Assembly: GCF_016026235.1 (NCBI RefSeq) | Contig: NZ_CP065613.1 | Source of the DNA: Escherichia coli | Lineage (GTDB): Bacteria; Pseudomonadota; Gammaproteobacteria; Enterobacterales; Enterobacteriaceae | Reading direction: 5' to 3' (one strand) | Length of the DNA: 64,000 bases | Made by a program: the position numbers and the translations under genes | Notes under the pieces: model-generated | The model's input: only the letters and a program-made list of their open reading frames with translations | What the model was told of the DNA's origin: nothing | The model's database searches: none | In this document: piece after piece, positions 19,887-26,068 of the stretch | How the letters are laid out: each line of letters begins with the position of its first letter | Numbering within the stretch: position 1 is the stretch's first letter

Positions 19887-20687
19887 ATGGAGATTACCAC
19901 TCTTCAAATTGTGCTGGTATTTATCGTAGCCTGTATCGCAGGTATGGGATCAATCCTCGATGAATTTCAGTTTCACCGTCCGCTAATCGCGTGTACCCTG
20001 GTGGGTATCGTTCTTGGGGATATGAAAACCGGTATTATTATCGGTGGTACGCTGGAAATGATCGCGCTGGGCTGGATGAACATCGGTGCTGCAGTTGCGC
20101 CTGACGCCGCTCTGGCTTCTATCATTTCTACCATTCTGGTTATCGCAGGTCATCAGAGCATTGGTGCAGGTATCGCACTGGCAATCCCTCTGGCCGCTGC
20201 GGGCCAGGTACTGACCATCATCGTTCGTACTATTACCGTTGCTTTCCAGCACGCTGCGGATAAGGCTGCTGATAACGGCAACCTGACAGCGATTTCCTGG
20301 ATCCACGTTTCTTCACTGTTCCTGCAAGCAATGCGTGTGGCTATTCCGGCCGTCATCGTTGCGCTGTCTGTTGGTACCAGCGAAGTACAGAACATGCTGA
20401 ATGCGATTCCGGAAGTGGTGACCAATGGTCTGAATATCGCCGGTGGCATGATCGTGGTGGTTGGTTATGCGATGGTTATCAACATGATGCGTGCTGGCTA
20501 CCTGATGCCGTTCTTCTACCTCGGCTTCGTAACCGCAGCATTCACCAACTTTAACCTGGTTGCTCTGGGTGTGATCGGTACTGTTATGGCAGTGCTCTAC
20601 ATCCAACTTAGCCCGAAATACAACCGCGTAGCCGGTGCGCCTGCTCAGGCTGCTGGTAACAACGATCTCGATAACGAACTGGACTAA
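19887..20687 (+). CDS. manY: PTS mannose transporter subunit EIIC
   Basis: 266-aa hydrophobic ORF recognised as ManY. Confidence 0.9.
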   Translation: MEITTLQIVLVFIVACIAGMGSILDEFQFHRPLIACTLVGIVLGDMKTGIIIGGTLEMIALGWMNIGAAVAPDAALASIISTILVIAGHQSIGAGIALAIPLAAAGQVLTIIVRTITVAFQHAADKAADNGNLTAISWIHVSSLFLQAMRVAIPAVIVALSVGTSEVQNMLNAIPEVVTNGLNIAGGMIVVVGYAMVINMMRAGYLMPFFYLGFVTAAFTNFNLVALGVIGTVMAVLYIQLSPKYNRVAGAPAQAAGNNDLDNELD

Positions 20688-20690
20688 CAG

Positions 20691-21551
20691 GTGAGCGAAA
20701 TGGTTGATACAACTCAAACTACCACCGAGAAAAAACTCACTCAAAGTGATATTCGTGGCGTCTTCCTGCGTTCTAACCTCTTCCAGGGTTCATGGAACTT
20801 CGAACGTATGCAGGCACTGGGTTTCTGCTTCTCTATGGTACCGGCAATTCGTCGCCTCTACCCTGAGAACAACGAAGCTCGTAAACAAGCTATTCGCCGT
20901 CACCTGGAGTTCTTTAACACCCAGCCGTTCGTGGCTGCGCCGATTCTCGGCGTAACCCTGGCGCTGGAAGAACAGCGTGCTAATGGCGCAGAGATCGATG
21001 ACGGTGCTATCAACGGTATCAAAGTCGGTTTGATGGGGCCGCTGGCTGGTGTAGGCGACCCGATCTTCTGGGGAACCGTACGTCCGGTATTTGCAGCACT
21101 GGGTGCCGGTATCGCGATGAGCGGCAGCCTGTTAGGTCCGCTGCTGTTCTTCATCCTGTTTAACCTGGTGCGTCTGGCAACCCGTTACTACGGCGTAGCG
21201 TATGGTTACTCCAAAGGTATCGATATCGTTAAAGATATGGGTGGTGGCTTCCTGCAAAAACTGACGGAAGGGGCGTCTATCCTCGGCCTGTTTGTCATGG
21301 GGGCATTGGTTAACAAGTGGACACATGTCAACATCCCGCTGGTTGTCTCTCGCATTACTGACCAGACGGGCAAAGAACACGTTACTACTGTCCAGACTAT
21401 TCTGGACCAGTTAATGCCAGGCCTGGTACCACTGCTGCTGACCTTTGCTTGTATGTGGCTACTGCGCAAAAAAGTTAACCCGCTGTGGATCATCGTTGGC
21501 TTCTTCGTCATCGGTATCGCTGGTTACGCTTGCGGCCTGCTGGGACTGTAA
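20691..21551 (+). CDS. manZ: PTS mannose transporter subunit EIID
   Basis: 286-aa ORF recognised as ManZ. Confidence 0.9.
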   Translation: MSEMVDTTQTTTEKKLTQSDIRGVFLRSNLFQGSWNFERMQALGFCFSMVPAIRRLYPENNEARKQAIRRHLEFFNTQPFVAAPILGVTLALEEQRANGAEIDDGAINGIKVGLMGPLAGVGDPIFWGTVRPVFAALGAGIAMSGSLLGPLLFFILFNLVRLATRYYGVAYGYSKGIDIVKDMGGGFLQKLTEGASILGLFVMGALVNKWTHVNIPLVVSRITDQTGKEHVTTVQTILDQLMPGLVPLLLTFACMWLLRKKVNPLWIIVGFFVIGIAGYACGLLGL

Positions 21552-21567
21552 GACTGTTGTACACTAC

Positions 21568-21592
21568 CGGGGCCTTTTGGCCCCGTTTTTTT
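21568..21592 (+). terminator. rho-independent terminator of the manXYZ operon
   Basis: ccggggccttttggccccg hairpin followed by a T-run. Confidence 0.6.
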
Positions 21593-21605
21593 ATCTGGAG
21601 GATTA

Positions 21606-22064
21606 ATGACAATCACGGACCTGGTACTGATTCTTTTCATCGCCGCACTCCTGGCCTTCGCGATCTACGATCAGTTCATCATGCCCCGCCGTAACGGCCC
21701 CACCCTGCTGGCAATTCCTTTGCTCCGGCGTGGTCGCATCGATAGCGTTATCTTCGTCGGATTGATTGTCATTCTTATCTATAACAACGTCACGAATCAT
21801 GGTGCGTTAATAACGACATGGTTATTAAGCGCACTGGCTCTGATGGGTTTTTATATATTCTGGATCCGCGTTCCGAAGATCATCTTTAAACAAAAAGGTT
21901 TTTTCTTCGCCAATGTCTGGATTGAATATAGCCGAATCAAAGCGATGAACTTGTCGGAAGATGGCGTGTTGGTGATGCAATTAGAACAGCGTCGGCTGTT
22001 AATCCGCGTTCGAAATATCGACGATCTGGAAAAAATTTATAAGCTTCTCGTATCAACTCAATAA
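21606..22064 (+). CDS. yobD: UPF0266 inner membrane protein YobD
   Basis: 152-aa ORF recognised as YobD. Confidence 0.85.
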
Positions 22065-22264
22065 TTTATGAATTTAGCCAAAGCTATGTTTAGTGTATTT
22101 TTAATAATCAGACATAGCTTAGGCTATATTATCTCTTCCCTTATTTGTTATTTATATTAACGTTTCATTGATATATAAATCTAAATGAAAATCGTTATCA
22201 ATAAAGCAATGAAATAATATATTCCAACAGTTGTTTTATATTCTCAAAATATGTTAAGGTTGCG

Positions 22265-22440
22265 CCCTCATTTGGGGAGTAGCCAATTTCCAGATTCCGG
22301 AAATGTACGTGTCAACATACTCGTTGCAAAACGTGGCACGTACGGACTGAACACTTTCAGTCAGGCGAGACCATATGCACATCAATCGCTATGCCTGCAT
22401 GAACGCGAAAACCATCGCGGCTTGTTGTTCATGTATGCAT
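22265..22440 (+). promoter_or_regulatory. yybP-ykoY manganese riboswitch in the mntP 5' leader (approximate extent)
   Basis: Conserved TTGGGGAGTAGCC element at 22272..22284 in a long leader upstream of mntP; E. coli mntP is known to carry this riboswitch. Confidence 0.6.
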
Positions 22441-22492
22441 GTTTGCTGGGGGCGATGATGTGTTTTATGGATACCCCGGTCAGGACGTTGTC

Positions 22493-23059
22493 ATGAATAT
22501 CACTGCTACTGTTCTTCTTGCGTTTGGTATGTCGATGGATGCATTTGCTGCATCAATCGGTAAAGGTGCCACCCTCCATAAACCGAAATTTTCTGAAGCA
22601 TTGCGAACCGGCCTTATTTTTGGTGCCGTCGAAACCCTGACGCCGCTGATCGGCTGGGGAATGGGCATGTTAGCCAGCCGGTTTGTCCTTGAATGGAACC
22701 ACTGGATTGCGTTTGTGCTGCTGATATTCCTCGGCGGGCGAATGATTATTGAGGGTTTTCGTGGCGCAGATGATGAAGATGAAGAGCCGCGCCGTCGGCA
22801 CGGTTTCTGGCTACTGGTAACCACCGCGATTGCCACCAGCCTGGATGCCATGGCTGTGGGTGTTGGTCTTGCTTTCCTTCAGGTCAACATTATCGCGACC
22901 GCATTGGCCATTGGTTGTGCAACCTTGATTATGTCGACATTAGGGATGATGGTTGGTCGCTTTATCGGCTCAATTATTGGGAAAAAAGCGGAAATTCTCG
23001 GCGGGCTGGTGCTGATCGGCATCGGCGTCCAGATCCTCTGGACGCACTTCCACGGTTAA
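22493..23059 (+). CDS. mntP: manganese efflux pump MntP (YebN)
   Basis: Recognised as MntP; start taken at [21 protein letters not shown] inside the 206-aa track ORF. Confidence 0.85.
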
Positions 23060-23865
23060 TAAGAACGCTGCCAGAGGTGAATATTAAAGTCCGTCTGGCA
23101 GTCGAACACTTCTTTTGCTGCCAGTGTTTGCCAGACTTCTGGCTTCGCACGCCAGGCAAACGGCGTCATCTGCAATAATGCGACGGCTTCATCACCGCGA
23201 AGACGCATCGGATAACACAACTCCGCACTCTGCTGTAATGTAAAACCTTCCAGTTGTTCTGCATGAGGTGCATGAAGATGTACTTCATTGTAAATCAGCC
23301 CCTTCAGCTCCATCAAATGTCGCGGTCCCGGCGTGGCAGTAATGACCCAGCCGCCGGGCTTCACTACTCGTGCTAATTCTTCTGCTTTACACGGCGCGTA
23401 AATACGTATTATGGCGTCCATACTGGTATCGGAAAACGGCAAACGGTGGCTGGAAGCGACACAAAAAGTGACCTGCGGATAGCGTTTCGCCGCCGCTTTT
23501 ATCGCTACCTTCGAAACATCCAGACCAAACGTGGTGATTTCGGGCAACGCATCGGCAAATGCGTGTGTGTAATACCCTTCACCACAGCCAATATCCAGCA
23601 CCGCCGTGGCCTTATCATCAAGCCGTTCCCTCAGTTGGGCGACAATTGCATCACGCAGCGGCTGATAATGTCCGGCATCTAAGAATGCGCGGCGTGCTTG
23701 CATCATTTCCGCGCTGTCGCCCGGATCACGAGACCGTTTATGCTGAACGGGCAGCAGATTGACATACCCTTCTTTCGCCATATCAAACTGATGTCGCTGG
23801 GGACAGATATAGCTGTTTTTTTCACGCGAAAGAGGCTGATGGCAAAGTGGACAGGGAAAAGACAT
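23056..23865 (-). CDS. rlmA: 23S rRNA m1G745 methyltransferase RlmA
   Basis: 269-aa ORF with N-terminal Zn-binding cysteines and SAM motif DIGCGEGYY. Confidence 0.9.
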
Positions 23866-23957
23866 GACAACTCCGGCAGGATACTAAAGGCCGCAAGTGT
23901 AACGCGAATCACGCGGCGGGCAAATATCCGAACGCCAGGAGCGAAGATAAAGCATAG

Positions 23958-23985
23958 TAAAAAGCCTCGCATTCGACGAGGCTTT
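23958..23985 (-). terminator. rho-independent terminator downstream of cspC
   Basis: gcctcgtcgaatgcgaggc hairpin followed by T-run on minus strand. Confidence 0.55.
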
Positions 23986-24030
23986 ATAGCGAGATTGAAG
24001 CGTATTCACACTTCAGATCAGTGGATTCGA

Positions 24031-24240
24031 TCAGATAGCTGTTACGTTAACAGCTGCCGGACCTTTCTGGCCGTCCTGAATTTCGAACTCAACGTTCTGA
24101 CCTTCAGCCAGAGTTTTGAAGCCATTACCCTGGATAGCGGAGAAGTGTACGAACACGTCTTTGCTGCCATCAGCCGGAGTAATGAAGCCAAAACCTTTAG
24201 ACTCGTTGAACCACTTAACCTGACCTTTAATCTTTGCCAT
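24031..24240 (-). CDS. cspC: cold-shock-like protein CspC
   Basis: 69-aa [23 protein letters not shown]... Confidence 0.95.
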
Positions 24241-24252
24241 TTGAAAAATTCC

Positions 24253-24396
24253 TTAGATTGTTTTCTTCGCCCGCAGGCATAACATAGATAAAACTGACAC
24301 ATTACTGCATGAGGCACCAATATAAGGCTCGGCAGAGAAGCGGTATTCAACGTCAACGTGTTTACTCAGGACTTCTTTACTGAAAATGCCACACAT
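24253..24396 (-). CDS. yobF: small protein YobF
   Basis: Manual translation of minus strand gives 47 aa [47 protein letters not shown]; below the track cutoff. Confidence 0.85.
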
Positions 24397-25064
24397 AAAC
24401 AGAACTGTACCTCGTTTAACCCGAAATCTGTTATCACATACAACGTTAATTATGGCAAGCCATTTTTAAACATGTCTCGATCAGACGCACAAATCTCGAT
24501 ACGTCTTCCACTTTTTTTGCACACTTATGCAACGGAATACGCGCTGATATATCATTGTGCTTAACCTTGCCAGTTCAGGCAGATACTTAAACTGGCGTAT
24601 TTTCTAACATAGTTCAATAAGTTCAGTTGTTCCAGGCCAGTGGGAGAAGTTATTACATAGTGCGTGCAATATCACATTTTTTGCTATGCAATGAATAAAA
24701 AGTTATATCACTTTTTCTCATAAAACAGTCAGTTAACGGCTATCAATTACCCTAAAGAGAAGTCAATCCCCAAAGGGATTGAAAATTTAAAATAAGAAAA
24801 ATTGATGAATGAGCAAAAAATCAAGAAAGAAACGTTTCGCTAATAAATAATACCACGCTTAATCACAAATCCGATGTAAACATCCTAATAAATTAATGAG
24901 GAAAATATCTTTTTCTGATATCCCGTTACGCAAATAAATAATATGATAATTATTTGAAGTCAGACCAGAGTTTTAATTTGAAGCAGTTGCACCATGGCAG
25001 TGCGTATAATCAGGATGAATTGAGTAACCCTTCAACGACGGGGTTACTCAAGATTGAGGAAGGA

Positions 25065-25352
25065 TTATCGTTCGGCGACCAGACGAATAATATCTTCGTC
25101 TTCAACCGATTTTTGACTCTCAACGGTCTTTTTATCTGCTTTCTCAGGTTCGTTTGCTTCGCACAAACGACGTAACAGTGCATTTTGACGTTTTTGCTGA
25201 TCCAGCAACGCCTCAAGCAGTTCAATCTGTTCGTTAGTCCGTGAACTGGCACGATTGATAAAAAACCACAAGATGAGCCCGATAAGAAGAACCACCACCG
25301 ATACAACCAAAGACGCAATGTTCATCACGCCTGAATTTACAACTTCGTTCAT
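25065..25352 (-). CDS. yebO: small membrane protein YebO
   Basis: 95-aa ORF recognised as YebO. Confidence 0.85.
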   Translation of the reverse strand: MNEVVNSGVMNIASLVVSVVVLLIGLILWFFINRASSRTNEQIELLEALLDQQKRQNALLRRLCEANEPEKADKKTVESQKSVEDEDIIRLVAER

Positions 25353-25426
25353 TTCACCACCTCTGAGTAGAGGCGCTATTCTACCACTGCTGGAGAGGAA
25401 GAAAATCTAGTGCTGAAAAAATGATA

Positions 25427-25570
25427 TCACCACGGGATAAACTGGTTAATGGCACAAATTCCGCTGAAAAATTGTACATCCTGATCGCACATCATGTTGA
25501 ATACCTGCGCCCAAAGCAGCAAGCAAGCCAACACCACGACAACCAGAACGACCCATCGAAACTTTTTCAC
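25427..25570 (-). CDS. mgrB: PhoQ-inhibiting small membrane protein MgrB
   Basis: Manual translation of minus strand gives 47 aa [47 protein letters not shown]; start codon here is GTG. Confidence 0.85.
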
Positions 25571-25728
25571 TCCAATCTCCGCTTCACCTACCTTATGTCA
25601 TTAAACTAGCATGCGTTAGTTAAACAGCGCCTAACTATGTCGATATTCGTGCTTTTTCGGAATGAGTAGCTTGCTTCAGCGCATATTGCCGCTACGATTA
25701 AGCGAACATAAAAAGAGAAGAGGTTGTA

Positions 25729-25968
25729 ATGCGATTCATCATTCGCACAGTTATGCTGATAGCACTGGTATGGATAGGATTATTACTCAGCGGATATGGC
25801 GTTTTGATTGGAAGCAAAGAGAATGCCGCAGGATTAGGTTTGCAATGTACCTATCTGACTGCCAGAGGCACCAGCACGGTACAATACTTGCACACTAAAA
25901 GTGGTTTCTTGGGGATAACAGATTGCCCACTGTTACGTAAAAGCAATATCGTGGTCGATAATGGTTAA
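25729..25968 (+). CDS. yobH: small membrane protein YobH
   Basis: 79-aa ORF recognised as YobH. Confidence 0.8.
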   Translation: MRFIIRTVMLIALVWIGLLLSGYGVLIGSKENAAGLGLQCTYLTARGTSTVQYLHTKSGFLGITDCPLLRKSNIVVDNG

Positions 25969-26068
25969 GGGTAATAAACAACCAGATTCTCACTCATGAG
26001 TAAAATATTCTTATAGCAAGCGCGTTTAATATAACGCACCTTCAACTTTATTTTTCTCATGCTAAATA

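Follow-up and report, generated by a model that had tools for sequence, protein, structure and literature searches.

The Convergent mntP–rlmA Junction of Escherichia coli: a Shared-Stop Overlap with a Probable Rho-Dependent rlmA Transcript End inside mntP

The convergent genes mntP and rlmA of Escherichia coli meet in an ordinary, ancestral tail-to-tail junction, in which two unrelated housekeeping genes share a TTAA tetramer for their stop codons; the rlmA transcript is most probably ended by Rho and bounded by a hairpin that lies inside the mntP coding sequence. This junction was analyzed in a 64,000-nt stretch of E. coli DNA from contig NZ_CP065613.1 (the window, whose coordinates are used below unless another source is named), where it belongs to the manXYZ-yobD-mntP / rlmA-cspC-yobF region. 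The sequence-only reading had placed the end of mntP at 23059 on the plus strand and that of rlmA at 23056 on the minus strand, as a convergent 4-bp overlap with no intergenic terminator. Both ends and the overlap agreed with the sequence and with the K-12 annotation, and the statement on the terminator was literally true, but true by construction, because mntP and rlmA have no spacer and the junction contains zero intergenic DNA. The missing spacer does not, however, amount to missing termination, since rlmA has a defined termination and 3′-end module within the mntP coding sequence.

Gene Identities and Geometry of the Junction

The mntP coding sequence (22493–23059, plus strand) encodes the Mn2+ exporter of 188 aa, as indicated by the open reading frame list, the NCBIfam equivalog NF008546, Pfam PF02659 and the K-12 counterpart, and the rlmA coding sequence (23056–23865, minus strand) encodes the 23S rRNA m1G745 methyltransferase of 269 aa, as indicated by the open reading frame list, the NCBIfam equivalog NF008300, Pfam and the PDB entry 1P91. 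MntP was aligned to NF008546 over positions 1–188 of 188 with 414.6 bits (cut-off 214) and was identical to the K-12 protein. Similarly, residues 1–268 of RlmA covered positions 1–271 of the 272 in NF008300 with 474.9 bits (cut-off 303), and its Pfam content comprised Zn_ribbon_RlmA and a methyltransferase domain. Moreover, RlmA corresponded over its full length to the 269-aa chain of 1P91, with the single substitution S4P. This substitution, placed in rlmA codon 4 (23854–23856) and adjoining Cys5 of the N-terminal zinc ribbon, was also found relative to K-12 and was the only protein difference from K-12 across mntP and rlmA.

Because both proteins match their equivalogs over approximately the full length, the two stops were not mis-called. 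The prospect of different stop positions on re-annotation, named beforehand as what would overturn the overlap, does not apply here, as the profile matches and the 1P91 chain back both ends. An annotation artefact, with one stop mis-called and no real overlap, has practically no chance of being the explanation, given the equivalog matches, the 269 residues of 1P91 and the position of the C-termini, which is conserved in 80 species. The sole annotation uncertainty concerned the mntP start, not its end: upstream, the frame extends without a stop as far as an ATG at 22439, which would give 206 aa; the annotation starts the gene at the ATG of 22493, and the equivalog model favors the resulting 188-aa protein.

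The rlmA gene is intact in the window, but some E. coli genomes have it annotated as a pseudogene. For example, FDAARGOS_943 (L001:3357-4166), the closest match of the window, carries an internal TAG in rlmA (CAG to TAG), and Z0117EC0036 (L085:942-1750) has an rlmA with a 1-nt deletion placed 16 nt before the stop. The MntP protein of both genomes is WP_001296134.1, the same accession found in the other E. coli genomes checked.

On the plus strand, positions 23050–23069 read CCACGGTTAATAAGAACGCT, with the codons CAC GGT TAA TAA GAA running across the end of mntP. The mntP stop TAA occupies 23057–23059 on the plus strand, after His-Gly, and that of rlmA is read on the minus strand from 23056–23058 (TTA read as TAA); it follows Arg-Ser-Tyr, with TAT as the Tyr codon, and the protein ends in WQRSY. 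The two stops thus share, on both strands, the tetramer TTAA at 23056–23059, which is the same in K-12. In fact, the MG1655 annotation places mntP at 1905688..1906254 (+) and rlmA at 1906251..1907060 (-), with an identical 4-bp overlap; the 220 nt around the junction were 100% identical to K-12, and the same overlap was called by PGAP in other E. coli genomes. It was also observed that the mntP stop is doubled as TAA TAA; the second of these tandem codons, in frame at 23060–23062, overlaps the Tyr269 and Ser268 codons of rlmA and would catch read-through if the shared stop were mutated.

The overlap is already known, having been present in the K-12 annotation for years, and it belongs to a described class. 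Lillo and Krakauer (2007; PMC2174442) put the number of convergent overlaps in E. coli at 58 and reported a step at length 4 in the distribution of convergent-overlap lengths, produced by CTAA, TTAA, CTAG and TTAG only; they also pointed out that the terminators of such genes must lie in the coding sequence of the partner. The mntP/rlmA pair is a plain member of this class, being composed of two genuine opposite-strand genes whose stops share TTAA. A 4-bp stop/stop overlap is the expected modal class of convergent overlaps and is not unusual in kind. What is added here to the description of the class is that the overlap was kept across approximately 25 genera of Enterobacteriaceae.

Conservation of the Overlap in Enterobacteriaceae

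The rlmA locus was taken from 80 Enterobacteriaceae species representatives, and both stops were located in each of them. The genera that keep the overlap, approximately 25, were drawn from a sample that comprised Escherichia, Citrobacter, Salmonella, Enterobacter, Klebsiella, Raoultella, Kluyvera, Kosakonia, Leclercia and others; the scan of the genome collection returned Enterobacteriaceae only, and the conservation figures are limited to that family. mntP was found tail to tail with rlmA in 80 of the 80 species, and the exact 4-bp overlap was present in 66 of them, the tetramer in the rlmA sense being TTAA in 57, TTAG in 8 and CTAG in 1. The other arrangements were a 3-nt gap in 8 species of the Klebsiella/Raoultella group, a 0-nt gap, a 9-nt gap and a 13-bp overlap in one species each, and a 48-bp overlap with loss of the rlmA stop in two; in one further species (L023), the truncated mntP contained N and was an artefact.

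The two 48-bp overlaps were found in Lelliottia sp. WAP21 (L028:3317-3364) and Huaxiibacter chinensis (L041:3317-3364). In these loci TTAA has become TTAC or TTAT, and the rlmA frame runs 48 nt into antisense mntP, which makes them a natural example of overlap growth through stop loss.

The last two RlmA residues, beyond the conserved W-Q-R, varied freely (SY, TN, DA, LN, EG and others), and the position of the stop seldom moved. Within the species, an 81-nt stretch over the junction was identical in 4536 of 5422 complete E. coli genomes and 95–99% identical in the rest. Judged from these comparisons, the arrangement is old and stable among Enterobacteriaceae. The junction would drift only rarely, by stop loss or gain, because the shared TA serves both stops and most changes damage at least one gene end; the persistence of the overlap would then need no special function. 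In this sense, the locus illustrates the evolutionary stability of spacer-free convergent junctions.

Termination of the rlmA Transcript within mntP

The RNA data considered here are published K-12 data obtained in LB and M63, not from the strain of the window, and the sequence is identical in both. The K-12 coordinates were transferred to the window with an offset of 1883195, which was checked on the manZ terminator. Supplementary file 1 of Adams et al. (2021; PMC7815308) gives K-12 1906214, on the minus strand, as a dominant Term-seq 3′ end; in two condition tabs this end is assigned to rlmA as "primary" and to mntP as "antisense". The transfer places the steady-state 3′ end of the rlmA mRNA at 23019 (minus strand), 37 nt past the rlmA stop. 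Since there is no spacer, the 3′-end signals of rlmA fall inside the mntP coding sequence.

Supplementary file 2 of the same study reports a Rho termination region with its peak at K-12 1906268, corresponding to 23073 on the minus strand. Counted over 800 nt on each side, the upstream and downstream reads amounted to 145 and 22 in untreated cells and to 342 and 530 with bicyclomycin, giving a Rho score of 10.2 (p 1.3e-31). With windows of this width, some of the effect may stem from de-repressed antisense promoters inside mntP and not from rlmA read-through. Both the position of the rlmA end and its dependence on Rho are already on record in published supplementary tables.

The mapped end is preceded by a hairpin at 23025–23045 (minus strand), recovered by inverted-repeat search and folding, with a perfect 9-bp stem and a 3-nt loop. 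In the rlmA-sense RNA it reads GCGUCCAGA-GGA-UCUGGACGC, begins 11 nt past the rlmA stop and folds with -15.3 to -17.5 kcal/mol; the 3′ end at 23019 lies 6 nt past the stem, leaving the tail CGAUGC. No U tract follows the hairpin, its 3′ flank being CGAUGCCGAU, so that on the rlmA side the GC-rich hairpin of an intrinsic terminator is present and the U tract is missing. Beyond the hairpin, the composition of 78-nt windows revealed a C-rich, G-poor stretch at 22928–23025 (minus strand), a candidate rut region: at +31..+128 after the rlmA stop, the rlmA-sense windows had a C content of 0.31–0.35 and a G content of 0.14–0.18, with C/G ratios of 1.9–2.2.

A consensus scan of both strands over 21500–24800 found no intrinsic-terminator-like site closer to the junction than approximately 600 nt; the first calls to either side were 22404–22419 (plus strand), upstream of the mntP start, and 23907–23891 (minus strand). 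Likewise, neither strand yielded a terminator at the junction in folds of approximately 200 nt per strand or in a hairpin-plus-T scan of the 80 species, and an Rfam E-value search of 20000–26000 returned the mntP riboswitch and the cspC leader alone, with no match at the junction.

This combination fits a known pattern. Dar and Sorek (2018; PMC6061677) described that Rho-dependent 3′ ends of E. coli sit right after stable stem-loops without U tracts, that rut sites lie just beyond these stem-loops and that the tails are trimmed by PNPase and RNase II. In the K-12 data, rlmA resembles their transcripts in three respects: a bicyclomycin-sensitive region, a precise 3′ end past a stem-loop devoid of a U tract, and an excess of C over G downstream. 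It differs from them in that the stem-loop and the presumed rut lie in the convergent mntP coding sequence, on its antisense strand, and not in a 3′ UTR. By analogy, the rlmA 3′ end would be the product of Rho termination followed by trimming to a protective stem-loop. The published K-12 data on the identical sequence show that, after the ribosome has left at the rlmA stop, Rho ends the transcription that runs into antisense mntP, and that the stable rlmA mRNA stops 6 nt past the GC-rich 9-bp stem-loop devoid of a U tract. On the Dar and Sorek model, Rho would load on the C-rich, G-poor stretch just downstream and terminate further on, and 3′–5′ exonucleases would trim the tail back to the hairpin. 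The locus illustrates how a spacer-free convergent pair still obtains defined mRNA ends, since the signals sit in the coding sequence of the partner.

The hairpin could instead be a weak, non-canonical intrinsic terminator, with termination taking place at 23019 itself and Rho acting as a mere backup. In stability the stem-loop is similar to the GC-rich ones of the canonical intrinsic terminators of manZ and cspC, a GC-rich 9-bp stem of about -15 kcal/mol stands immediately before the mapped rlmA 3′ end, and mixed intrinsic/Rho cases may exist according to Dar and Sorek (PMC6061677). Unlike manZ (21568–21585, then TTTTTTT) and cspC (23961–23985, then TTTTT), however, the rlmA hairpin has no U tract in its flank, the consensus terminator scan made no call on it, and the effect of bicyclomycin at the rlmA end was approximately tenfold, all of which makes intrinsic termination an unlikely account of this end.

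Bidirectional terminators between convergent genes, operating without Rho, have been described by Ju et al. (2019) and Wang et al. (bioRxiv 10.1101/2022.10.23.513370), and the idea of a hairpin acting as a pause site comes from this work, which proposed it for many E. coli convergent pairs. By this mechanism, the polymerases converging from mntP and rlmA would stall at the palindromic hairpin and displace each other from the DNA, so that termination would be driven by collision and independent of Rho. The likeness is real, as mntP and rlmA converge without a spacer and have at their junction a hairpin-forming element, 23025–23045, that is a perfect palindrome and forms on both strands. The collision class, however, is defined as Rho-independent and lies between genes, whereas the rlmA side is strongly Rho-dependent, with its score of 10.2, and the hairpin falls within mntP, ahead of the mntP stop codon. 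In the mntP-sense RNA it therefore belongs to the translated part and cannot mark the mntP 3′ end. Moreover, mntP is weakly transcribed without Mn, which would make collisions rare in LB, and yet the rlmA 3′ end is sharp in that medium. Collision is thus improbable here, and Rho termination with trimming to the stem-loop is the reading retained in what follows.

Structure of the Hairpin and Possible Selection on mntP Codons

The hairpin at 23025–23045 is encoded by the MntP codons G-V-Q-I-L-W-T, among the last of the gene. Distinct perfect hairpins with stems of 9 bp or longer numbered 10 in the 64-kb window, against 1.5 expected in shuffles; this hairpin is among them, and most of the other nine resemble terminators.

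Covariation, codon and hairpin-pattern tests, none of which was corrected for shared ancestry, were applied to the species sample, and in the 79 distinct sequences 80.7% of the cells were paired, against 16–47% when the partner column was slid. Four pairs of the stem had changes on both sides, and none of 500 shuffles reached the observed values. One of these double changes opposes U-A (Thr/Val) in Escherichia and Salmonella to C-G (Ala/Ala) in Citrobacter and Enterobacter, and another, in Kluyvera, turns C-G into G-C via a Trp-to-Tyr change and an Ala codon swap. The wobble pairs leaned to the rlmA-sense strand, with 58 G·U against 18 A·C. When synonymous codons were resampled with the protein fixed, again without correction for ancestry, the mean ΔG was -6.0 ± 0.34, compared with -10.7 observed, a value reached in 0 of 300 resamplings; the hairpin sequence of the window itself fell in the lowest 2.3% of its synonymous-codon null. 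The same test on 20 neighboring 30-nt windows of mntP gave |z| <5 in most and |z| <7 in 18 of the 20, the outliers being the hairpin at 23025–23045 (z -15.9) and a second hairpin approximately 30 nt further on (z -13.2).

Part of the stem follows from the protein, as the conserved MntP motif Q-I-L-W largely dictates the inner 5–6 pairs, and approximately 14 of the 80 species lacked a stable hairpin on the rlmA-sense strand over the first ~75 nt downstream of the mntP stop. In the two divergent E. coli junction variants that were aligned, one from a group-B2-type O2:K2:H1 strain and the other from an rlmA-frameshift strain, the stem was unchanged; both variants have the same two synonymous mntP substitutions, located in the 6-nt tail that separates the stem from the mapped 3′ end. 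Taken together, the comparative patterns are suggestive of selection on structure, the hairpin being possibly more than a by-product of coding.

A stronger version of this reading is that the codons of the last transmembrane segment of mntP perform double duty, specifying G-V-Q-I-L-W-T and, on the opposite strand, a stem-loop that both defines and protects the rlmA 3′ end, so that selection would have shaped both synonymous and non-synonymous choices in MntP. This we put forward tentatively, as a possibility that is on balance doubtful. If true, it would be a clear case of a 3′-end signal of one gene constraining the protein sequence of its convergent neighbor, and such a constraint of the rlmA hairpin on MntP codons and residues, for now only suggested, is the one point of wider interest in this locus.

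The second hairpin, CGCCGAGGAUCUCGGCG, lies at approximately 22984–23004 (minus strand), is encoded by the MntP codons A-E-I-L-G-G and is disrupted in E. coli. It was stable mainly where the first hairpin was weak (L022, L034, L035, L042, L043, L060, L064, L067, L071 and L075). Across the 80 species, 54 had only the first hairpin, 10 only the second, 2 both and 14 neither (Fisher p 5e-5, shared ancestry ignored). From this distribution, lineages without the first hairpin tend to carry the second one, approximately 30 nt further on.

The mntP Transcript and Its Leader

On the plus strand, neither a 3′ end nor a Rho region at the end of mntP was found in the datasets of Adams et al. (PMC7815308), TERMITe and SMRT-Cappable-seq, which is probably due to the poor expression of mntP when no Mn is added. 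For the sequence past the mntP stop, RNAalifold on the 80 species gave no meaningful consensus fold (-5.9 kcal/mol, with two tiny helices), and a hairpin followed by a T run was not found in the window and was present in only 6 of the 80 species. The CTGGCAG/CTGCCAG repeats at 23068–23136 were considered as a 3′-end structure and dropped, as they are products of repeated Trp-Gln codons in RlmA. The C/G ratio of the plus strand was mildly raised, to 1.2–1.6, at approximately +90..+210 after the mntP stop. Within antisense rlmA, Rho probably stops the mntP transcript, unless its end is diffuse; confidence in this reading is low.

Upstream of mntP, the leader contains a Mn2+ (yybP-ykoY) riboswitch aptamer at 22266–22362 on the plus strand (Rfam RF00080, 40.1 bits, E 2e-08). 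Its score is below the Rfam gathering score of 45, and a scan at the gathering threshold would miss it. This aptamer is nonetheless the experimentally studied E. coli mntP riboswitch. The riboswitch makes the transcription and the translation of mntP conditional. A JBC 2024 paper on mntP and Rho placed the gene under the control of both Rho and the riboswitch, and it covers the leader only.

The overlap might also be viewed as a regulatory device, in which Mn-induced mntP transcription enters rlmA in antisense, or rlmA read-through enters mntP in antisense, and so couples Mn efflux to rRNA methylation, either by interference or by the processing of double-stranded RNA, in an excludon-like manner. 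The tight junction is indeed conserved across the family, the antisense-mntP RNA rises strongly under Rho inhibition, and both Rho and the riboswitch control mntP itself. Nevertheless, MntP and RlmA have no functional link, the antisense signal is low in untreated cells (22 against 145 reads), and rlmA has been lost as a pseudogene in some strains with an intact MntP. The literature examined on these genes contained no such coupling, the two being co-listed only in a gene table and the JBC 2024 paper mentioning neither rlmA nor antisense RNA, and the TA common to both stops explains the conservation more simply. Coupling of the two functions is thus very unlikely, and an ordinary junction of unrelated genes remains the preferred description.

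Neighboring Elements

The upstream boundary of the rlmA transcription unit is given by the intrinsic terminator of cspC (23961–23985, minus strand), a perfect 9-bp hairpin followed by a T run. It corresponds to the terminal hairpin of the Rfam cspA-type match and to a dominant Term-seq 3′ end at K-12 1907153 (PMC7815308). The cspC gene and its leader (23956–24416, minus strand) matched the Rfam cspA thermoregulator model with 135.7 bits. The naming of this gene by PGAP was inconsistent, being cspE in some genomes and cspC in others. On the other side of the junction, the AT-rich stretch 22060–22141, after yobD, gave weak matches to mir-282 on both strands (E 0.1–0.3), which are almost certainly chance matches of low-complexity or palindromic sequence.

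Insertion sequences were considered as natural separations of mntP and rlmA and were rejected in this role, as they are located in or beside cspC and leave the junction untouched. In the E. coli C / WG5 lineage (L084:2132-3566), cspC is split by an ISSen4 insertion, and in strain TW01221 (L083:2365-3062) an IS1A lies between cspC and yobF.
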